A stretch of 63,922 nt of DNA, the filler included, from Aduncisulcus paluster (lineage: Eukaryota), in the NCBI GenBank assembly GCA_024181965.1. It is 12 parts of 12 records of this genome, joined end to end, with 100 filler letters (N's around TTAATTAATTAA, not from the genome) between each part and the next. Parts side by side here need not be neighbours in the genome. Positions count along the whole stretch, not along the records: positions 30,773 to 38,367 come from BQXS01010031.1; 11 more parts are not named here. One strand, given 5' to 3'. Of the stretch, positions 1 through 48,210 are shown piece by piece. A program made the translations under genes and the position numbers. The first letter of the stretch is position 1; every line of letters begins with the position of its first letter. A model generated the notes under the pieces. It was not told the origin of the DNA, did not search any database, and was given only the letters and a program-made list of their open reading frames with translations.

Positions 1-655
1 AAAGGAAGAGGAAGAACGTTTGAAGAAAGAAGAGGAAGAACGTTTGAAGAAAGAAGAAGAAGAACGCTTGAAGAAAGAAGAGGAAGAACGCAAGAGAAAG
101 GAAGAGGAAGAACGCAAGAGAAAGGAAGAGGAAGAACGTTTGAAGAAAGAAGAAGAAGAACGCTTGAAGAAAGAAGAAGAAGAACGCTTGAAGAAAGAAG
201 AGGAAGAACGCAAGAGAAAGGAAGAAGAAGAAGAACGCTTGAAGAAAGAAGAGGAAGAACGTTTGAAGAAAGAAGAAGAAGAACGCTTGAAGAAAGAAGA
301 AGAAGAACGCTTGAAGAAAGAAGAGGAAGAACGCAAGAGAAAGGAAGAAGAAGAAGAACGCTTGAAGAAAGAAGAAGAAGAGGAGAAAGAAGAAGAGGAG
401 AAAGAAGAAGAGGAGGAGGAAAAGCAGGAGGAAGCTGAAAAGGAGATAGAGGAAGTTAAACAAGAAGAAGAGGAGGAGAAAGCAGAGGAGGAGAAAGAAG
501 AAGAGGAGGAGGATGACAAACCCCAAACCTCTAAACCTCAAGTTTCTAAACCAAAAGCCCAAGGAGGAAACCAAGGGGGGAAAGGTAAAGGTAAAGGTAA
601 AGGAAAAGGAAAAGGAAAAGGAAAAGGAAAAGGAAAAGGAAAAGGAAGAAAGTGA
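1..655 (+). CDS. C-terminal part of a low-complexity charged protein (KKEEEERL repeats, single-alpha-helix-like) ending in a (GK)n tail; 5' truncated by window edge
   Basis: Open frame from the window start to TGA at 653-655. Tandem LKKEEEER/KRKEEEER units with synonymous variation, then GKGKGKGK...GRK. Confidence 0.75.
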   Translation, partial: KEEEERLKKEEEERLKKEEEERLKKEEEERKRKEEEERKRKEEEERLKKEEEERLKKEEEERLKKEEEERKRKEEEEERLKKEEEERLKKEEEERLKKEEEERLKKEEEERKRKEEEEERLKKEEEEEKEEEEKEEEEEEKQEEAEKEIEEVKQEEEEEKAEEEKEEEEEDDKPQTSKPQVSKPKAQGGNQGGKGKGKGKGKGKGKGKGKGKGKGRK

Positions 656-880
656 CTCACTTGGTAGTACTCAGAGTACTACTCATTTTAGATGATAATA
701 AAACAAATTTTATTCTTAAAATTGTTCAATTCGAATGGATATCCAATTTTTGTCAAAAAAAAAAAGATGAATAGGGCGTGAATTAGCCTAATTTCTTTCA
801 ATTTGCCTAGTTTATTTCTGGATTCGAAAACAGAAATCGTCTTTTTTGACGCAGTCTTAGAAAAGGGAAGAATTTACTTG

Positions 881-2038: not shown

Positions 2039-2475
2039 TTTATTTTTTTATACATGATTTTGTCCGTTTTGATTTCATCGATTAATCAAAATGTCTAAAA
2101 TTAAATCTATTATGATAATAGAATAGCATTTTTGGATTTATATCGCACATTTCCAAAAATCCTTTCATATATATATTTATTACAACACTGTTGCATCCGA
2201 TGCCAGAGTCTGGTACTACCAGTCTGGTAGACGACAGATGACAATATAAGGTATTGTACAGATTTTCAGCGCAATTATGATTTTTCTTTTTAATTTAATT
2301 TAATTATGGTTTGTTGGTGTCTAACCAAATTATTAATTTCACCACTTTCTTGCCAAGATCAGTTTCAAGATATTCTCATATTCTACTGTTTAAGGCAGGA
2401 ACATTAGGAAAGACAAATGATGTCATCGTATCCAATGATAATATTGCATAATATTACTAGTAGTATGGTGAAGTT

Positions 2476-3003: not shown

Positions 3004-3840
3004 TTTACCCTTTTAGGATGTATCAAAAGAAAGAAAAAAAACTGGAATGACCGTTATTGTTTGAAACGTGACGTTTCAATTATTGAAATTCAATAATAAG
3101 TTATTTTGCCCCTTAACTTCTATTTTTCATTGCTCTTTGAATTTTATATTGATGTATGTATATTATTTATGTTAAGCGTGATTATTTATGTTTCGGTTTT
3201 TTATATAGCTCATTATTTCTTGCTTAACCATCCAAATTAATTTTCTCCTTATTATAAATGTGTTTTTCCCTTATCTTACGATGATAATGTTATAAACCGT
3301 ATTTTAATATCCTTTTTGTGTTATTTTTCTCTCTTTTTTATCTGATTTTGCCTCCTTTTGATCAAATTGTATTGGCAGTAGTCAGTTTTGCCGGTACCGG
3401 CAGTTGCCGGTACCTAAGATATCTTTAGCTACACCCATTACAGAAATAAAAACCCATAAATCTTTCATAATTTCAACAAATTTAATAGAAAATAGAAAAA
3501 ATAGTTGAAAATTCCCTTCGCGCAGGCGAGAACATTTTGCCGGTATTGTTCATATCGCCAATTTCGGTCAAAAATACCGTTAAAATGTTATCGCCTTGAA
3601 TATAGATTAAATTCATAATAAAACCTCTAAATTCTTTATAACTTTTGTATATTTATGGCTAAAACTTCATTAAAAATGAAAATAATAGGTCAAGAAGCCA
3701 GCAAAAACAAAACTTTCAAAAAAATACAAAAATAACCAATAAAAGCAGATTTTATTATAATAATTTTGTATATTAATCATATTTATATCCGAGAATAACG
3801 ATTATTAAAAAATATTATTGATTGGTGCGCAAGATAGATA

Positions 3841-3931
3841 ATGGATGAAGACAAACTAGCTAAACATCATGGAATCACAATTGAAAACGTTCCAGGAGAT
3901 GGATATTGCTTATATCATGCCTTTTTAAAGG
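3841..3931 (+). CDS. N-terminal fragment of an OTU-like cysteine protease (runs into contig end)
   Basis: Manual translation MDEDKLAKHHGITIENVPGDGYCLYHAFLK contains the OTU catalytic-Cys motif (V-x-G-D-G-x-C-L-[FY]-x-A). Confidence 0.6.
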
Positions 3932-4031: not shown

Positions 4032-5270
4032 TCATTTCTTAGGGGTTTCGGAGGTTCCTCTATCTGAATTGAGGATATGGGATCATAGGGAATGCTGGGG
4101 AGAGATAGAGAGAGGATTCAATAATCTATCTCATTTTTCCTCAAATGTTACACGTAGCTGAGCTTCTCGTAATTTAAGATCTCTTTCGCTTCTCAATAAT
4201 TTTGCAATTTCTTGCAAATTATCATATAGCATTTTCATGTAAGTCAGAAAAAACCTTGATTAATGACTTAAATTCATGTAAAAATACAATCCCTGCAGAG
4301 ATAAAATGGTTTAAGTGATATTGAAGACCGTAATCAAGGAAAATTATCAAAGCGGCCGTCTTTTCCCACGATTTGCCGTAAAATATTGGATAAGGATTAG
4401 TGAATTTGTTATTTTCAATTGAAAATGACAGGCTAATAATGTTAATATCTATAATATGGGTCATTATACTTAATTCTAGATCTGTGTAATATCCACATGA
4501 GAGCAGATGGTCTATATATTTGTAAATTGATTTATGGTAAAGAATAATCGCATTTTTTTTTTTTTTCAACAAATACCTCTCTGAATCTCCTTTTCCTAAT
4601 TAATGCTTCTTGCCTATGTTTTGATGATGTCAAATGATCGATATGATATTCAGTTGCTAAATGATAACAACATAATTTTATATGTTTTTTTCTAAGACCA
4701 CTGAGCAATTCATATTTTGGGATGTCTACCCTCCACAAAGAACAGAATGGTTCCAACCATGAGATGTTATTGAGCTGATGCCCCAATATTGGGTCATATT
4801 TGCTGCTTTTGGGCATTGAATGTTGGAGAGTCAGAGATTCTTCGGTATATTCCTCAACTCTTTCGAGGAAATCTTCTATCGCTGCAATATCACCATTTAA
4901 GCCACCAATTGAAGGTCGAACTAATTCTGGATGGGGATAAAACTTCTCTAAATCGGTAAAATCGGGTCTTGGAGATGCAGACTTAACAATTTTAATTCAG
5001 CAAAAGAAATTTTTCCTAAGGACACCCATGTTATCAGCAGATTGAAAAGATGTGAGTTTTTCTCTCTTTGGTAAAATTTTCATTTCCACTTTTTGGGAAG
5101 AATTCAAAAAAAAAATAAGATGTTTTTTTTCAATATACTTTGCTTTAAGTTTTCAATATGAATTGTTTTTTTCAAGTTCTTTTGCTTCTTCTTGAGCCCT
5201 GATTTCCATTGCAAAGTCATGCTCGCCGTAATCTCCAAAATCATCCTCCAATCCATTATAGTTGTTCTAG
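4032..5270 (-). pseudogene. Decayed, frameshifted ORF with a zinc-finger-like segment and a possible OTU-like C-terminal half; probably TE-derived
   Basis: Overlapping short ORFs 4532-4816 (FCSLW...HLTSSKH) and 4222-4572 (GYYTDLELSIMTHIIDINI...YHLNHF) are joined at a poly-A run. Stops and frameshifts occur in the flanks. Confidence 0.35.
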
Positions 5271-10537: not shown

Positions 10538-12295
10538 ATGACTTCACCTGTGTCTAAATATGAAATTACTATCAAAGCAGAGGATTTAGAATCCAAGGAT
10601 GTGCTGTCATCTTCTGATCCCTTCTGTGTTGTTGAAATTGTTAATGCAGAGAAGCAAGCCGTAGCGGTTGGAATGACTGCACCAATTAAAAATTGCAACA
10701 ATCCAGTTTTTCCTGAAAGTTTTTTATTACCATACATGTTTGAGACTCCTGATCGCGTCCGTATCAGACTTTTTGATTGTGACTCCTCTGATCTTAAAGA
10801 CTTGAGAAAGCATGATTATATTGGAAATGTTGAATTCCAAATTGCTGATTTAGTGGTATCTGTTACAGGAGAACTCTCCCTTCCTCTGAGAGGTCCAGAT
10901 GGTAGACCTTACAGAGGTAAGAAGAGTCCCAAGATTCATATTTCTGGTGAACCTGCAAGTAGCGATAATATTTTTGCTGATATGTCTTTCTGTGCCAAGA
11001 ATATTGATAAGAAAGATACATTTGGAAAAACTGACGGTTATTTAGTTTTCCAGAGGGCCAAAGAAACTGCTAGTGGAGTTCCAGAATGGCATGAAGTTCA
11101 TAAAACTGAGGTTGTTAAGAAATCACTGAATCCCGTGTGGAAACCTATGAAATTGAGTATGCAGAGACTCTGTAACAATGACGTTGAGAGACCTATTCGA
11201 ATCCAATGTTTCGACTGGGATTTGGCCAGTGATGATGACTTCGTGGGACACGCTGATACCTGTATCAGTGAACTCGAACGTCTTCGTGAAGCCGGTGATG
11301 GAGTTCCTCTTATTTCTGAGCATAAGAGAGAGAAAATGAAGAAAAAAGGCAAGGACTATATTAACAGTGGTATGCTGTACATGCTGAGCTTTTCTATCAC
11401 AAAGATACCCACCTTCCTTGATTATGTGTATAGTGGAACAATGCAGCTGAGTCTCTCTGTGGCTATTGATTTCACTGGTTCCAATGGTCATTATTCATCT
11501 CCTTCATCCCTTCATTACATCGGACGTGGACAATCTGAATATGAAAAGGCCATGGCTGCCGTTGGATCTGTTTTATGCCCGTATGACAGTGATTCTTTGG
11601 TGGATATTGATGGATTTGGAGCCATCGTCGGAGGTTGTGTCTCCCATTGTTTTCCTCTTGGAGGTGGCTCTGTTAAGGGTGTAGCTGGAATGCTTGAAGC
11701 CTACAGAAGCACCTTGACTGGCGGAGTCCAACTCTGCGGACCCACTGTTCTCCATTCTGTCATTGAAAAATCGATGAAACAAGCCCAATTCTATCATACG
11801 TTGAATACCCGTTCCCACGCCGAACAAGTTGCTTCTGCTTTTCACCAAACCGGTGTCGCCCAAGGATATCAGGTACTGTTAATCCTCACTGACGGTCAAG
11901 CAAATGACATGGAACAGATCAAATCCACGGTTGTGGCTGCATCGAGTCTTCCTCTATCAATAATTATCGTTGGAGTCGGCCGAGCTGATTTTTCTGCGAT
12001 GGAGTTCCTCGATTCCGATGGAACGATGCTTAGAGACTCTCGTGGGAATTCTGCCATAAGAGATATGGTCCAATTCGTACCATTTAATAAGTTTGCCGGA
12101 AATCCCCATCTTCTTGCACAGGAAACATTGGCAGAATTACCAAAACAAGTCCTTGAATATGCCAAAAGTGTTGAGATGATGCCCATTTCACGAGCTGAAA
12201 TTTCAATGAAGCTCGAAGCCAAAGCAGCCGTTGCAAGAGCTGAAGCTGCCATGGCCCACGCAAAAGTCCAAGCTTTGGGCGGCTCTGCTCCGTAA
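10538..12295 (+). CDS. Copine (C2A-C2B-vWA calcium-dependent phospholipid-binding protein)
   Basis: SSSDPFC, DKKDTFGKTDGY, HKTEVVKKSLNPVW, AIDFTGSNG...SLHY, LLILTDG, ASSLPLSIIIVGVG, RDMVQFVPF, TLAELPKQV. Confidence 0.95.
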   Translation: MTSPVSKYEITIKAEDLESKDVLSSSDPFCVVEIVNAEKQAVAVGMTAPIKNCNNPVFPESFLLPYMFETPDRVRIRLFDCDSSDLKDLRKHDYIGNVEFQIADLVVSVTGELSLPLRGPDGRPYRGKKSPKIHISGEPASSDNIFADMSFCAKNIDKKDTFGKTDGYLVFQRAKETASGVPEWHEVHKTEVVKKSLNPVWKPMKLSMQRLCNNDVERPIRIQCFDWDLASDDDFVGHADTCISELERLREAGDGVPLISEHKREKMKKKGKDYINSGMLYMLSFSITKIPTFLDYVYSGTMQLSLSVAIDFTGSNGHYSSPSSLHYIGRGQSEYEKAMAAVGSVLCPYDSDSLVDIDGFGAIVGGCVSHCFPLGGGSVKGVAGMLEAYRSTLTGGVQLCGPTVLHSVIEKSMKQAQFYHTLNTRSHAEQVASAFHQTGVAQGYQVLLILTDGQANDMEQIKSTVVAASSLPLSIIIVGVGRADFSAMEFLDSDGTMLRDSRGNSAIRDMVQFVPFNKFAGNPHLLAQETLAELPKQVLEYAKSVEMMPISRAEISMKLEAKAAVARAEAAMAHAKVQALGGSAP

Positions 12296-12516
12296 AGCAC
12301 TTAATAAGTACTTTTCGTGAGTGCAATTAATATGTAGTTATTCTCTGTTTTTAAAATTTATAAATTTTATTTTAATATTCACAATCAATAAACCGTTTTG
12401 TCGATGTCAATCATTGATCTCAGCTTTCATATTTTTATTACCGGCTGTGGCCGGCAACGACCGTACAAATTTGTTTTTTCTTTTGTATTTTGTTGCAATT
12501 ACGGTCATTATATTAA

Positions 12517-30672: not shown

Positions 30673-30840
30673 NNNNNNNNNNNNNNNNNNNNNNNNNNNN
30701 NNNNNNNNNNNNNNNNTTAATTAATTAANNNNNNNNNNNNNNNNNNNNNNNNNNNNNNNNNNNNNNNNNNNNACGATAAATTGTTTCAGTAAAATTGGGT
30801 TTAATTTGCGAGATTTTTGGGTGTTTTTTGGCTGAAAGAA

Positions 30841-31135
30841 CTAAAAGCTTAGGTGACTACCCTTGCTCTTTGGTTCTTTCTTTTGGATTAAATTCCAGCT
30901 GTAAGACGATACACAAGTCGCTTCTCTTATACACAGGCCTCTTCCAAGCCCACATAGAAGGGTAGATGCCCATCTACGTGATCTCTCTTCTCTGGTTCGG
31001 CCAGGTACCATGAAATCGGTTCCATTCCTCCGTACATGCTCAATAAACTCCCAAGCTTTCTCTCCAATGGCTCCAATTGTTGTCAAGGCGAAGGGTATCA
31101 AAAGATAGGGTTGGTGCTTTTTAGCACAGCCTCAA
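30841..31135 (-). mobile_element. 3' fragment of a non-LTR retrotransposon (restriction-like endonuclease C-terminus), 5'-truncated
   Basis: KKHQPYLLIPFALTTIGAIGEKAWEFI resembles the K..Y...F.P....G.....A..F tail of RLE-clade (CRE/R2/NeSL-like) ORFs. Confidence 0.5.
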
Positions 31136-31273
31136 TAATGACGCCATGAATCACTCGAATAATGACGGGGGAAATCAGAGGAATCAGAGTTGTTCTAAGA
31201 ACTTTAATTCTATATTCAACAAGTGAAATAACCCTGGTTGAAGATGTGAGATTCAAGCCTTGAATGCATAAAA

Positions 31274-32164: not shown

Positions 32165-32401
32165 AATATCTTCAAAAAATGATAAAATAAATGACCTCAA
32201 TGTGAATGTTATGACGGCCAATTAAAATAAATCTGATCGTCATGATTAAAGGTAATCCATAAAAGAAACGCACATTTTAAAATGGGGAAAAGTATTTATT
32301 CTTCCTAAAAATTTAAAATTATTTCATTTTGAACTTGATCTCTATCAACAATACAAGAGATATCAAAATTGATCCAAAGCATGCCATGCTTTAACCAGTG
32401 G

Positions 32402-35347
32402 TTAAAAAAACCCACCGGGTGGATACATTTGTCCTCTCATTTGCATTTCACGGATATATCTCTTCAACGCCTCATTCTCGTTCTGCAACTTGCCACATTT
32501 GATTCCAGCCTCCATTAATTCCTTTCGAAGACTGTCTTTCTCTTCAGTGGCGAATTTCAATGCTTTTCTTTGGTCTAATAATTCACGAACTATTTTGGCT
32601 ATCTGTTTTCGACTGGCAAAGACACAAGTCCGGGCTTCTTTCAGTTTTGTCTGCAGATCGGACACCAATTTTGAGTAAAATCGAGACAATTCATCCAATT
32701 CATCTTTAATATGACCTATAGTAGCACTCTTTTCAGATTTATCGGGCTCACAAGATATAAATTGGAGTTCTTTGATACCCCTGATACAAGACACAAGAGG
32801 TGCAAGAGCAGCGGTTGCTTCGGCTCTAAATTCTTTTTGCTTGAGCTCGGATATTTGAATTCCTTCATATATTCCGTCCAAAATAGAATTCGTGGAATCA
32901 TATATTTTCTTTAGTTTTTCCTGGCATTTTGTAGAATACTGGATTGATTCTGATATTTCACACTCAATGGCCTTTTTATCGTCAAATGTACTCTTAATAA
33001 AACGATGGAAGGATTCCATTTGGGTTGCAATATTGGATTGGAGATATTTCAACTGTTCCATATCATTCTTATCTCCTATCTTCTTCTTCCTGGAACTGGA
33101 CGCTGCCTCGAGAGTGTCACATACATCTTTTCCGACAAGCTCACATCTGGAGCCTAATTCTGTCATGAGAATGGTCGCTAAGGAGGCGAGGGAGTTGGAT
33201 ACGGGTTCAACTATGGATTGGAGAGAGGATGAGATCGTCTCCGAGAACGAAGAGAAGAAAGCTCGAGGCAATGTGACAGAGTCGTCAGATATGACAGCGG
33301 ACGAGAGCGATTGATGGGGATGAGCAGTCTGGGAGTGCTCTTGAGAAAAGGCAGGAAGAGACGTCATTCCAAAATCGAGACAGGATTCACTAAGAAGCTG
33401 CGATTCAAACATTTTTTCATCTTCCTTCTCTTTCTTGAGCTGTTCATCTTTTCTTCGTTGCTCGTCCCTTCGTCTACGCTCTTCACGAAGATTCTTCTGG
33501 GCTTCGAGCGTTTCAAGATGTTTTTTTCGTTTTTCCTTGGCAAGACGTTTTTTTTCGGCAGCCTTCTCTTTCCTTTTTTCTTCAAAAAAAGCTTCTTTTT
33601 GCTTGCGTTTTTCTTCTAGTTTCCATTGTTTTTTGAGTTCTTCTTGCTTTAATTGGCGCTTAAGAGGTGTCCAATGGGCAAGATCTTGCATTTTTTGCAA
33701 CACACTGTCCTCTTTCCGAGCTTTCTTACTGCTATTATTTGCATCTTTAGTTATTTGACTAAGCAATGAGGGTGAAATTGCTGGTTTGGGGTTGTTCTGA
33801 GACTTTAAAGCTACGGTTGTGTAAGGATCATTAACACCCTGTCCCTTGAGAACAACTGACGGGTGGGTCTGAGGATTGGTGGAAGGAGTTTGAACACATC
33901 TACTTTCTATGGATTGAATAAGCTTTGGTTTGGCTTCTTTCTCTTTTATCTTTTCGACAAGTTCCAGGGGACTTTCAGTCAACGTTTGTGCTCGAGCTGA
34001 ATGGGAATCTGAAGATGGGGAAAAGAACGATTCCTTTTCTTTCTTGCTCTCAGATATTGAATCTTGTTGTTCTATTTTTAGTTTGGATGAGAAAGATGAT
34101 GCTCTTTGCCTCCTTGCAGATTCTTCTTGAATTTCCCATGAGACGCGATCAGAATTGGCTTTCTTAGCATCAATAAATATCGTCGTAACATCTATCTTGG
34201 CTTTATCCTTAAAGCATACGGCTAGAATACTTAAAACCCCTTCTTTCTCCATGATAGAGAACTGGTCAAAACGTCTGATATAGCGGAGCAAAGGAGGAGG
34301 AGGAGCAGTGGGACATGAGAAATTAAGGGGAACGTGGAAGAGGGAATGGTGAGATAATGAGGCTTCTTCCTCCCGGGGAGATAGGGCGAGGAGAAGGGAA
34401 TAGAGAGTGGGACGTGGAGTGGTACTGGAACTCAACGAAGGGAAGGAGAAGAGGGAAGAGGCTGTAAATATGTATCCTTTGGGAACAATATAGGAACAAA
34501 TCAAGGAGTGTCTGCCTTCTGAAAGATCACATCGAAAGATATCAACCCTGGAAGGATAAACGATCGATAGAAGAATTGAATCCAGAAAAGATGAGAGGAA
34601 GAAGGTAGAATTACTCATATCTTCGACAGGGATATAACAAATGTAGCGAACAGCCTGAACTTGCTGATAAACGAAGATATATGGGGAATCTGAGGTGATT
34701 CCATAAACATTGGGCGAAATATCTGAGAATGAGCCAAGAAGAGCTCTTGTGAGATTGGTATCGCATGGAAGGGCAGCTACAATGCGTTTTTGGAGACACT
34801 CTGGACGAAATTCAAGTTTTGGAGGGAAAAAATCACAATTCAGAGCTTGACAAAATTCTTGAAGCTTTCCATCAGATGAAACTTCTAAAAATAAAGTTTT
34901 GTCATATCCAATAATACATATATCGGCTTCATTTAAATATGCATCAATCATAACCCCAGAAGAGGAATATTTAAACTTTAGAGGACGAAAACGAGAATCT
35001 GGCGGGTTGATAGGTGTAACAAGAATATACTCTTTCATTTGAATATAATTTAAAATGATATTTTTATGTCTTTTTACAGTAATACAGGATATAGGTTCAG
35101 ATTGAAGAAAAGGACCATCAGCAGTCGTTATCTTGACTCGTTTCGAATCCTTTGCAAAGTTAGTCAAGACAATTTTTCCTGTTTTAAGCTTTAAAATGGC
35201 CAATTTATAATCGTCACAACTATTGATGCAGTTTTTGAAGACTTGGATTGGCGTATTACTTATATGGTTAATACAATTAACATGACCATCAATATCGGTT
35301 GGAATGAGAAGTACTTCTCTTTTTTTATCTTTATCAACTTGTTTCAT
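32402..35347 (-). CDS. Hypothetical protein: beta-rich N-terminus, low-complexity middle, coiled-coil C-terminus
   Basis: Uninterrupted ~980-codon ORF. First ATG at 35347. Confidence 0.7.
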   Translation of the reverse strand: MKQVDKDKKREVLLIPTDIDGHVNCINHISNTPIQVFKNCINSCDDYKLAILKLKTGKIVLTNFAKDSKRVKITTADGPFLQSEPISCITVKRHKNIILNYIQMKEYILVTPINPPDSRFRPLKFKYSSSGVMIDAYLNEADICIIGYDKTLFLEVSSDGKLQEFCQALNCDFFPPKLEFRPECLQKRIVAALPCDTNLTRALLGSFSDISPNVYGITSDSPYIFVYQQVQAVRYICYIPVEDMSNSTFFLSSFLDSILLSIVYPSRVDIFRCDLSEGRHSLICSYIVPKGYIFTASSLFSFPSLSSSTTPRPTLYSLLLALSPREEEASLSHHSLFHVPLNFSCPTAPPPPLLRYIRRFDQFSIMEKEGVLSILAVCFKDKAKIDVTTIFIDAKKANSDRVSWEIQEESARRQRASSFSSKLKIEQQDSISESKKEKESFFSPSSDSHSARAQTLTESPLELVEKIKEKEAKPKLIQSIESRCVQTPSTNPQTHPSVVLKGQGVNDPYTTVALKSQNNPKPAISPSLLSQITKDANNSSKKARKEDSVLQKMQDLAHWTPLKRQLKQEELKKQWKLEEKRKQKEAFFEEKRKEKAAEKKRLAKEKRKKHLETLEAQKNLREERRRRDEQRRKDEQLKKEKEDEKMFESQLLSESCLDFGMTSLPAFSQEHSQTAHPHQSLSSAVISDDSVTLPRAFFSSFSETISSSLQSIVEPVSNSLASLATILMTELGSRCELVGKDVCDTLEAASSSRKKKIGDKNDMEQLKYLQSNIATQMESFHRFIKSTFDDKKAIECEISESIQYSTKCQEKLKKIYDSTNSILDGIYEGIQISELKQKEFRAEATAALAPLVSCIRGIKELQFISCEPDKSEKSATIGHIKDELDELSRFYSKLVSDLQTKLKEARTCVFASRKQIAKIVRELLDQRKALKFATEEKDSLRKELMEAGIKCGKLQNENEALKRYIREMQMRGQMYPPGGFF

Positions 35348-35457: not shown

Positions 35458-35824
35458 ATGGACTCACAAAAAGTTAAAAAAATAGATAGTACAATGGAAT
35501 CTCCTTTTGATTTTTTACGGTATTTACTCGAAGAACGGGTACGAGTGATCTGCAAGGATGGAAGGAGTGTTGAAGGAGAATTAATAGTATGTTTGTTTCC
35601 ATTGATGATATTGTTTTATCCTTACTGAATTATATTAATATTTTACGATCTTTTAGGGATTCGATGATCAGCCCAACCTTTTTATCAAAGACGTTGTTGA
35701 AGTTCAAAAAACGATACAAATTGATGAAGAATTTGGAGGAACTGAAACTAAAACAGAAACTCGTCACTTTTCAAACTTATTCATTAGAGCTAACACAGTT
35801 CGCTCTATAGCCTGCATGTTTTAA
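35458..35824 (+). CDS. LSM3: Sm-like protein LSm3; two exons (35458-35586, 35657-35824)
   Basis: Spliced product MDSQ...ESPFDFLRYLLEERVRVICKDGRSVEGELI|GFDDQPNLFIKDV...LFIRANTV has Sm1 and Sm2 motifs. Intron GTATGT...TTTTAG at 35587-35656. Confidence 0.8.
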
Positions 35825-36040
35825 TGTTATAAGGACTACTTGTCGCTCTTCCATGTTAATTGAATCTAATCATGAATATTTCAATCAAAATTATTATAAT
35901 ATTACAGTTATAAATAAACATTTATTTTGATCTTTATATAAAATTATATATATCTCTTGGAGAGCTATTATAAGTTTTTATCGTTATATTGAGTGAAACT
36001 CATCATATTTGAAGATTAATTTGAGTATATATAACTTTAA

Positions 36041-41338: not shown

Positions 41339-41833
41339 ATGATGATTACAAACAAATATGTATCAATATTTAATGGATATATTCAAAAATCAAAAACATT
41401 ACATTATGTATTGAGTTGTTTTGGACCCCCTATCTTTGCATGCATCGATAATCATATGAATGTTTATAACAAGCGTATGTATAAAGGAGAATTATATCTG
41501 ATTAAGGTTTATGGGTATCCAATCGATCAATTGACGAAGGAACTGTTTGATAAGGCAAAGGAATATACCGATGCAGATTCTGAAGAAGTTATAGATTTAA
41601 TTGTTAGCTCAAGCTCATCATCTGTCATTGCCAATGATCAAGTTGATCTTCCTGAAATTGAAATTGACTTTGGCCCCATGGTCGATCATTCCCAAGTTGA
41701 TAGTATCACGAGAAGCACTCTGCTTCAATCAACAACTCCCTCTCTCAGCTATACTGATAAGGTTAGGATTGTATTGCTCTCTATCCGTGCAATATCAGCG
41801 TCAAGAAAAGACAAACGAGATCTTATATCTTAG
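41339..41833 (+). CDS. Hypothetical protein / TE-associated fragment
   Basis: 164-codon ORF with no recognisable motif, in a TE-rich contig. Confidence 0.35.
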   Translation: MMITNKYVSIFNGYIQKSKTLHYVLSCFGPPIFACIDNHMNVYNKRMYKGELYLIKVYGYPIDQLTKELFDKAKEYTDADSEEVIDLIVSSSSSSVIANDQVDLPEIEIDFGPMVDHSQVDSITRSTLLQSTTPSLSYTDKVRIVLLSIRAISASRKDKRDLIS

Positions 41834-44122: not shown

Positions 44123-44755
44123 TAATCAAAGGATCAAAATGATTCGTCCTTTATTAAATATTTATTCTAATTGAATTTCACTNNNNNNNNNNNNNNNNNN
44201 NNTGAGTGCGTTCTTCCGGGATTGTTTGAAGCCTTCCGTAATCCTTCTGCCGATATCAGGAAAGCGGTTGTGTTTTGTCTTGTCGATCTTTATATGCCCT
44301 TTGGAAACGACCTTAACCCTTTCTTATCGACCCTGACGGCGACTCAACTGAGATTGGTGACTGTTTATGTGCAACGGTTGCGCAAAGCAAGGAAAGAGGA
44401 GCAAGAAGGAAGCAGGAGGCACGAGGAAAAGGAAGATCAGGATCATCAGAAAGATGAAGACTACGAATCATACCACTGATAATCAAAGGATCAAAATGAT
44501 TCGTCCTTTATTAAATATTTATTCTAATTGAATTTCACTTCTGAAAGTTCTTGAGTGATATCGAAATCTCCAGAGATTTGGCGGGGTCCCCGCCGCGGGG
44601 ATCTGCAATAAAAATAAAAAATAATTAAAAATGGGTTTTGAATTTTTGGTGAGGTTGATTATACTTGATTTCTCTATTTTTCTTCGGGTCTGTCAAGGTC
44701 ACATTATGTTGGTAAACACCGAGTATTTTATATATTTTTGGAAATTAAGAAAATA

Positions 44756-46588: not shown

Positions 46589-48210
46589 ATATATTGTATA
46601 ATACAATAGTATAGTATCTATTCTCATCTATCCACAGGTTTCTAATTATTCGTTATTATTATCATATCTCTGCCCTTTTATTTGTATTCTTTCACCGCAA
46701 AATTGTACGAAGCAAAGGGAATTTCCTCAGGATCTTAATATTTTACAAAAGTTTTCTCCAATTTACGACTTTTCTCGTTATTTCAACTTTTAGCAGGGTA
46801 TATTAACGTTCATACTTTGCATCTTCATTTTATTAATATTATTGTTTTATTGTCTTCTGGAACATGTGAATCACCATCGTTGAATTTACATGTGGCCTTT
46901 TGTTTTATTTTTGAATAGATATTCAAATTTATAAACTTTTAAAGTCATGATTTATTGATTCTATTATTTAGATCATTGTAGTAATATTTTTTATTATTAA
47001 CGTTTCTTCATTATTGGTGAGAAGAATTATTTTAGACTAATTCTCAATCTGATATTTTTAGAATATTTAGAGTTTTGGATCGCTTTTTTATTAAGTTTAA
47101 TTGGTTATAGTTCCTCATAATAGGGTAATTGACCTTCAAAAATATTTTATTTTATTTTAACATCTGCCCTCAACTATAAAATTATTCCATTTCTCTCTTT
47201 CTAAAAACACAACTTTTCTTGATTATTATTTCTTTTTGGCTCTTATATGATTTATCCAGAAATAATCCTGGCTTTGAGTTCAAGGTGAGGTTCTTTTTGT
47301 TTGATGATAAATTATCAGTATTTATCATGGATGGTTCGTATTTAAATCTCTTTATTACTGAATGAACAGTGTTTGTTCTCAATTCTATACATAGAATTTC
47401 TATGGTTTTGTTGAGGATTCTTTGAATGATCTTGTTTATGTAGATCCTGAGAATATAGGAATGAGAGAATTGTCTCAGACAATAAACTGTTTGAAATAAG
47501 AGAATGTAATGAAATTTGAGTGTCATTGTCAATGACTCATTGATAATGACATTATTAATGTGGCAAGACCACTTGTAGTTGTTAGTGTCACAAATTTACT
47601 CCTTAGTACCTGAGGAGAAATAAAAAACTAAAAATACCCAACAATAACTAATTGTTTAAACGATAATAAACAAATTTTCCTTTCGGATTTCTATTTTTAG
47701 ATTTTCTATTTTTAGATTATCAATTTCCAAATCGCGGTAAAATCGGTAATTTTTGATGGATTATCCATTTTAAATACCCTTTACAGTCAAAATCCCTGCC
47801 TATGTAAAATATCTAACCCAGGATCAGTTTGAATCGACATATTAGTATGAATGGCCACTTCCTCCCTATTGATTTGCCAGATTGAATTTCATGTGAGGTT
47901 TATTAAAAATTATTATTAAGTTCTAAGTTGAGCTCACAAAAATTGTCAAACAACAAGAAAGGAAAAGTTGCGATCATCCGCGAAAAAACTGAGGAGAAAT
48001 CTCTTCAATGAATAAATTTTTAATTTAATTTAAATCGTTGAAACAGAAAGAGGAAATAAAATAAATTTTACAATAATAATAATAAAAAAAAATCAGAATA
48101 ATAGAAAGGAGCAAAATAACAGATATAGTTTAGGCTTAGTAATAGGATTCAATATCTCACAACTCAGTTAGTATACAATACTGTACAACCATTCTTACCA
48201 ACCACTGGAT

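Follow-up and report, generated by a model that had tools for sequence, protein, structure and literature searches.

Why should short perfect palindromes crowd around a stop codon? The question is raised by a locus of Aduncisulcus paluster (contig BQXS01010031.1), where a 981-amino acid (aa) gene ends among three palindromes, each centred on a single base, the pivot. The gene lies in a stretch of 63,922 nucleotides (nt), here called the window, in which twelve contigs of the assembly GCA_024181965.1 (29.55 Mb, 23,235 contigs) are joined by artificial linkers. A first-pass annotation noticed these palindromes, together with others at the stop codons of unrelated genes, and offered two explanations: a structural signal for 3'-end processing or termination, or scars left behind by some process that forms hairpins, for instance hAT excision. 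The second is supported by the analysis presented here. The palindromes are very probably excision footprints, that is, the scars that transposons leave at their donor sites, and they follow two grammars. One is hAT-like. The other, to which the focal site belongs, is read as a new variant of excision footprint.

Palindromes with a one-base spacer in non-coding DNA

Statistics were drawn from 80 other stretches of the same genome (642,647 nt; labels such as L009 and L025 denote these stretches outside the window) and from the twelve pieces of the window (62,822 nt). The resulting 705,469 nt represent 2.4% of the assembly and are biased to larger contigs. Chance expectations come from dinucleotide shuffles within 100-nt blocks. 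As a proxy for genes, 264 open reading frames (ORFs) of at least 200 aa were taken, which cover 69% of the DNA; small or intron-split genes are thus scored as non-coding. Counts at even spacer lengths are inflated by AT microsatellites, and these were filtered in the comparisons of coding and non-coding density. The flanks of 20-N gaps are duplicated (window 58287 and 58592; L062:1736-2317), a scaffolding artefact that double-counts features unless removed.

Every palindrome that had been quoted is present in the sequence at its reported position, and the linker positions place the listed examples on four contigs rather than five. The proposed excess of single-base spacers is also confirmed, both over shuffled controls and over other spacer lengths. 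With arms of at least 7 nt, one-base-spacer palindromes number 193 in the 80 stretches (72.6 expected) and 28 in the window (7.1 expected). Arms of 5 nt are near chance in the window, at 145 against 95 expected. The density of one-base-spacer palindromes in non-coding DNA is 0.81/kb, compared with 0.23-0.31/kb for spacers of 0, 2, 4, 5 and 7 nt, and in coding DNA it is 0.068/kb, which is the control level. Perfect 7-bp arms exceed the controls by about 120 and arms with one mismatch by about 90, a joint surplus from which the scars would be either young or slow to decay.

Two grammars of paired palindromes

Distances between neighbouring pivots peak sharply at 7 nt, where there are 21 pairs, against 0, 6, 4 and 3 pairs at 5, 6, 8 and 9 nt. 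The pairs behind this peak, here called class I, have arms that mostly end at exactly 7 nt and share one grammar: for a word ABCDEFGH, the sequence reads ABCDEFG, then the reverse complement of the whole word, then BCDEFGH. Strictly defined, class I comprises 39 pairs in the 705,469 nt (19 with pivots 7 nt apart, 17 at 6 nt and 3 at 8 nt), and ten shuffles gave 0-4 (mean 1.3). Among the pivots at the 7-nt distance, 31 of 40 complement the edge base, 7 repeat it unchanged and 2 do neither. The group of 7 may be explained by opening of the hairpin on the other strand. Class I is read as an Ac/Ds-type footprint of a 7-9 bp target duplication, which is a known kind. In one clean case the scar can be seen as a gain: compared with its paralogue L010 (89% identical), which holds a single copy of the word, L009 carries 14 additional nt in class I form. 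The genome contains eight matches to PF05699 (hAT), and two short hAT derivatives with 23-24 bp inverted ends are flanked by 8-bp duplications (L013:1328-2639 and L016:1281-1804). Elsewhere, chains of 3-4 class I pivots with a 7-nt period (L084:7964-7992 and L079:3909-3944) suggest that elements inserted and left several times at the same place, or that hairpins were opened more than once.

Class II is defined by its pivots and its flanks. When abutting pairs were collected with no condition on either, 39 of 78 had C as the first pivot and G as the second, and none had G then C. In 35 of the 39 C..G pairs the right flank opens with the same two bases that close the left flank, where the chance level is 0.08, and 2 of the 39 have a 3-nt duplication, one of them at window 41625-41648. 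Some of the sampled contigs had been chosen via repeat-search matches, and this key test was redone on the 456,396 nt without them; 25 of 52 pairs were then C..G, and 22 of the 25 carried the 2-nt duplication. Strict class II pairs number 38, against 0 in each of 10 shuffles. Their pivots are 9-18 nt apart, their arms are unrelated and mostly 5-7 nt long, and they abut with an overlap of -1 to 3 nt in 37 of 38, for a net gain of 12-19 nt.

The duplicated dinucleotide of class II is free in sequence (AA/TT 8, GA/TC 7, TA 6, CA/TG 5 and others 12, among the 38 strict pairs), which argues for insertion with a 2-nt stagger. The C at the 3' end of each flank is constant on both strands and would most simply be the element's own first base. 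There is also a weak symmetric target bias (AC-nn-GT), in which, of 76 half-sites, 30 have C at -1 and 35 have A at -2. Two other schemes were rejected: combining the hAT rule with a CnnG duplication of 4 bp accounts for no more than 5 of 35 pairs, and a 3-bp duplication model fails.

Strict pairs of both classes are nearly absent from genes, the long ORFs holding one of class I and one of class II. Scars also form nested chains, and such clusters can be compared with paralogues. A 217-nt cluster in L094, with C or G at 13 of 14 pivots, corresponds to about 22 nt in the paralogue L033, and six paralogues of L025 skip most of its positions 4609-4695, as judged from match coordinates alone. At such clusters the difference may reflect deletion in the paralogues instead of gain.

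The focal site

The first two palindromes at the end of the 981-aa gene form one class II footprint (Table 1). As first described, three palindromes straddled the stop codon; the codon does lie in the right arm of the second, and the third is in coding sequence with an arm of 5 nt, a length near chance. A hAT-type origin does not suit this particular scar. Its flanks share just 2 nt and its pivots are C then G, which places it in the C...G class with a 2-nt duplication instead. The target lay one base past the stop codon, and the protein would therefore have been left intact by the scar. No empty allele of the focal scar was found in the contigs of either sequencing run, and no joint or indel is listed there. 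The 981-aa gene is covered by an RNA-like contig. This contig, from the presumed-RNA run of gene-sized, spliced contigs, ends at 32433, 28 nt short of the stop codon; its end was not used, as contigs cannot show transcript ends.

Proposed mechanism

Both grammars could arise from a single route. Cut-and-paste transposons would seal the host flanks as hairpins at excision. The host would open each hairpin about 5-8 nt from its tip and join the two ends, each then consisting of flank, pivot base and inverted flank. In class I, the 7-9 bp duplication would make the opened ends complementary, and annealing would yield word, inverted word and word, with pivots 6-8 nt apart; the pivot would be the complement of the base adjoining the element. 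In class II, the duplication would be of 2 bp, and the ends, sharing little, would be joined over an overlap of -1 to 3 nt. The first nick would fall one base inside an element with 5'-C...G-3' ends, placing the terminal C at the hairpin tip. Attack on the opposite strand at the border would then form the flank hairpin and leave the transferred strand intact. The resulting scars would be expected to persist where they are harmless: not in coding DNA, where they cause frameshifts, less upstream of genes, and freely downstream of genes and in dead repeats.

A more specific version is put forward tentatively, with confidence falling a little short of even. It holds that a transposase of the CMCT clade (described below) nicks one base inside its own 5' end, and that a host seemingly without Ku opens all the C-tipped hairpins at an almost constant 5-8 nt and rejoins them almost untrimmed.

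Several observations weigh against excision as the source of the palindromes or against its class II form. Only 64 of the 178 non-coding palindromes with arms of at least 7 nt fall in strict pairs; the others would be chance occurrences, trimmed scars or something else. The gain polarity is seen in just one clean case, of class I (L009), and among the 68 gapped alignments that were inspected only 2 showed an arm of at least 6 nt. A 2-nt duplication is likewise present in 9 of 39 pairs with pivots other than C..G. Mismatches on the sense strand are G-U more often than A-C (36 against 20, p=0.044 against 1:1). The stretches examined, in which the ends of the CMCT copies were not resolved, yielded no delimited element that combines C...G ends with a 2-bp duplication, and no filled site matching a scar at the same place was found. 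The scars far outnumber the surviving elements, which calls for high turnover. A nick inside the element departs from the hAT rule, and it is not known to be the RAG rule either. Finally, a literature search, mostly without subscription papers, returned no EnSpm/Plavaka excision chemistry and, for the CMCT lineages, neither an excision footprint nor a nick position; among the matches listed, none described these scars or CACTA/Plavaka hairpin footprints.

Host break repair as an alternative

The palindromes might instead come from host break repair alone, an explanation that we consider unlikely. A polymerase-theta-like activity would fill in a staggered break, which in class II would have a 2-nt overhang of the sort made by Spo11-type cuts. 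A C would be added, and a snap-back of 5-8 nt would be followed by joining. In its favour, metamonads are reported to be without Ku70, Ku80 and DNA-PKcs, and some retain alternative end joining (PMC8516963; here and below, a PMC number stands for the available sections of that paper). A Ku search of this genome gave no match and its control worked, in an assembly that is incomplete. A search with PF07522 (Artemis/Pso2 type) gave no match and a silent control, from which nothing is concluded. Moreover, the weak AC-nn-GT bias, with its C at -1, could be a nuclease preference, no donor element has been delimited, and yeast is known to gain foldback insertions of 5-34 bp where its DNA is broken (PMC11724301). 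The yeast foldbacks, however, depend on an inverted repeat that is already present, with a 41-nt loop, and affect one end, whereas the scars here have perfect arms at both ends and a one-base pivot. The 7-9 bp periodicity and the complement rule of class I match the 8-bp duplications of the resident hAT elements, and C at nearly all class II pivots would demand an ad hoc non-templated step of repair.

Relation to stop codons and gene 3' ends

The first-pass annotation had suggested that structure, rather than sequence, recurs at gene ends. That the palindromes are selected RNA or DNA structures which mark transcript 3' ends or terminate transcription is now highly improbable. Sites with arms of at least 7 nt lie within -15 to +30 nt of 11 of 217 stops (controls 2.7), and outside the window of 7 of 196. 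Outside the window, densities at 0-30, 30-100, 100-200 and 200-400 nt past stops are 1.72, 1.02, 1.95 and 1.19/kb. A stop-proximal peak is absent there (p=0.31), and reaches p=0.034 once the window, which was chosen for this feature, is included. No fixed distance from stops was found among the stops examined (11 of 217 having a nearby site). Strict pairs lie a median of about 370 nt from the nearest upstream stop, with 8 of 66 within 30 nt, and scars are found in dead repeats too.

What survives of the tie to stop codons is a lean towards the downstream side of genes. Density is 1.39/kb in convergent spacers, 0.80/kb in tandem and 0.72/kb in divergent spacers, and within tandem spacers 25 palindromes fall in stop-side halves against 14 in start-side halves (p=0.11). 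Both figures would suit a 3'-end signal, as would the mostly perfect state of the scars and the surplus of G-U mismatches. Composition alone, however, predicts 56% G-U, against an observed share of 36/56, and the control spacers show similar ratios. Under the excision reading, selection against scars upstream of genes could produce the same lean.

Folding also argues against a selected structure. The whole excess (174) carries an innermost pair that RNA folding leaves open, and single hairpins are weak, at -2.2 to -4.1 kcal/mol. Selection for folding would favour three-base loops of any bases. Hairpins with a spacer of 3 nt and non-pairing loop ends show no such excess (94, against 75 at spacer 5 and 93 at spacer 7), which speaks against selection of the palindromes as foldable structures. 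A structural signal, in addition, gives no role to the identity of the pivot or to the flanking duplications.

Also very improbable is a domesticated, RAG-like programmed excision that removes DNA segments and leaves joints: the scars resemble coding joints with palindromic additions, clusters show the same spot used repeatedly, and CMCT proteins have motifs common to RAG1 and Transib (PMC12730594), but the duplications indicate prior insertion rather than loss of host DNA, the transposase family has many diverse copies, some of them broken, and contigs of both sequencing runs match the window at the focal scar.

Candidate donor elements

For class II transposon excision, the candidate donor is a CMCT (EnSpm/Plavaka-like) family, an assignment that we lean towards slightly and present as a candidate rather than a finding. 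A weak Plavaka match led to a tblastn search, which gave 46 matches in the genome to a Plavaka-like protein of CMCT type; the copies are multiple, diverse and partly broken. In this family (L127-L146) several frames, 670-930 aa long, carry the complete series of motifs (D, D, C(2)C, H(3)H, E), though the Plavaka profile scores below its cut-off. Ten CMCT-type proteins, when aligned, all share the second D and the C(2)C motif; 8 of them have H(3)H and 7 the final E region. The PF02992 profile had no match in the genome, and its control was silent too. Compared by sequence, the transposase alignment had no match among solved structures (best E 0.26). By eye, tRNA-like sequence stands just downstream of two CMCT transposase genes (L145:110-190 and L135:1-55).

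Broad scans for inverted repeats were swamped by chance pairs, and individual candidates for the class II donor were discarded. What looked like a pair of inverted ends in L020 occurs only once, with host genes lying between the two. A 562-bp unit (L012:1220-1781) has a 2-nt direct repeat; its second copy is without the duplication, and it carries a hAT fragment. This hAT-derived element has subterminal 7-mer repeats, true repeated ends common to two other copies, and no 8-bp duplication in the copies checked. The start of a young element at window 3374-3376 was set aside, neither its right end nor a duplication having been recovered. The segment at window 3374-3931 is the end of this young DNA element, for which the genome holds 9 or more near-identical starts, with GG before nearly all of them; the frame that it enters has what we take to be an OTU-like motif. 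A GC-rich motif shared by L140, L143 and L033 was dropped as a CMCT end, as it adjoins retroelement remains.

Other features of the window

The remaining sites of the window are listed with the focal site in Table 1. Window 30773-31132 is a 360-bp piece of a high-copy repeat with 45 matches, many of them 99-100% identical, whose truncation points vary. Two annotated frames have a small gene between them at window 35509-35848; its 70-nt GT..AG intron (35586-35657) is skipped in the RNA-like run. Outside the window, L123, L124 and 14 further pattern matches hold, in many near-identical copies, a gene piece that resembles a tRNA-modifying radical-SAM enzyme.

Table 1. Palindromes and footprints in the window, with the parts of the focal site first.
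Feature	Position	Strand	Description
Focal class II footprint	32376..32406		Two abutting one-base-pivot palindromes (arms 8 and 8), pivots 14 nt apart; probable net gain 17 nt
Left TG of 2-nt duplication	32382..32383	+	End of left flank
Left pivot C	32384	+	Putatively the base with which the excised element began, kept at the hairpin tip
Inverted left flank, then inverted right flank	32385..32397		3 nt common at 32390-32392 (microhomology join)
Right pivot G	32398	+	Same C, other strand
Right TG of 2-nt duplication	32399..32400	+	One base from stop codon
981-aa host gene	32402..35347	-	No Pfam match; stop codon 32402-32404 in original flank DNA; scar entirely in 3' region
Third palindrome	32412..32422		Pivot 32417 G, arm 5, within coding end; chance or single-arm scar
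Palindrome and class I pair	650..684		Pivot 656 C, arm 6, spans stop codon; class I pivots 673 (A, arm 9) and 679, 6 nt apart
Scar chain	2193..2230		Class II pair (pivots 2198 C and 2208 G, 2-nt duplication), then class I pair (2216, 2223)
Palindrome	pivot 2460		Pivot G, arm 5
Scar chain	3061..3097		Class I pair (pivots 3081, 3088; 8-bp word) and arm-9 palindrome (3070)
Imperfect palindrome	12294..12314		Spans stop codon; pivot 12304 A, arm perfect over just 5 nt; may be an older scar
Palindrome	31251..31265		Single arm, pivot 31258 C, arm 7; 15 nt after stop of DRAM/Frag1 gene
C...G pair	41625..41648		Pivots 41631, 41642; 3-nt rather than 2-nt duplication
Class I footprint	44580..44601		8-bp word, pivots 44587, 44594
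Palindrome	46592..46608		Single arm, pivot 46600 A, arm 8; 11 nt after stop
Two consecutive class I footprints	47522..47561		Pivots 47529/47536 (8-bp word) and 47549/47555 (7-bp word)

Significance

The proposed structural 3'-end signal is replaced by two exact sequence rules. The 77 strict pairs in 0.7 Mb would correspond to about 3,000 genome-wide if the sample is typical. Scars of this kind would be a major source of non-coding growth and would count past transposition where the elements themselves are gone. Should the class II reading be true, it predicts the nick position and the intermediate of CMCT-clade transposases, which are relatives of RAG, and this prediction is testable in vitro with apparently complete reading frames of this genome, such as those in L135 (908 aa) and L141 (927 aa). 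It would also imply a distinct route of hairpin opening and end joining in metamonads, one whose activity sufficed to leave scars by the thousand. The uniform arm length informs on how hairpins are opened and rejoined in a lineage described as without Ku-dependent end joining.

Comparison with known systems

The Ac/Ds elements of the hAT superfamily are the closest match to class I. Their footprints contain P-nucleotide palindromes, inverted repeats centred on the complement of the base adjoining the element (PMC5873905), and class I shares with them the host-opened flank hairpin, the microhomology joins, the 8-bp duplication and the complement rule, which is followed at 31 of 40 pivots. Ac/Ds footprint arms reach up to 3 nt in Candida and up to 20 nt in budding yeast (PMC5873905); the scars here differ in having arms clustered at 5-8 nt at both ends and in being fixed, at about 100 strict pairs per Mb. 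Class II, with its constant C...G pivot and 2-nt duplication, is impossible under the hAT rule.

RAG nicks exactly at the border and gives palindromes without a central base, unlike the one-base pivots found here. Flank hairpins have been shown for hAT, Transib, RAG and the Mutator element Muta1 (PMC5499845). Muta1, Transib and RAG likewise share the host-opened flank hairpin with the scars described here, and a donor of Mutator type would fit the 9-bp variant of class I (3 of 39). In yeast, excision of Muta1 is described as mostly precise in the available sections of that paper, unlike the scars reported here.

Yeast foldback insertions are similar in that short inverted duplications stand beside a break and the joins use 0-5 nt of microhomology (PMC11724301). 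They differ in their dependence on a pre-existing inverted repeat, their long loop, their one-ended form and, as far as the available sections show, the lack of a fixed pivot or target duplication.

The CMCT clade comprises EnSpm/CACTA, Mirage, Chapaev, Transib, Plavaka, ESTA as well as Lanisha, and its elements mostly have 5'-CA..TG-3' ends and duplications of 2-5 bp (PMC12730594). PlavakaA is an exception whose ends, TGT..ACA, would predict T...A pivots, unlike class II (PMC12730594). The usual CMCT ends and duplications fit the C...G pivots of class II with duplications of 2 nt (35 of 39) or 3 nt (2 of 39), as read from the scars and not from an element. The genome of A. paluster is rich in transposases that carry this clade's C(2)C and H(3-4)H motifs.

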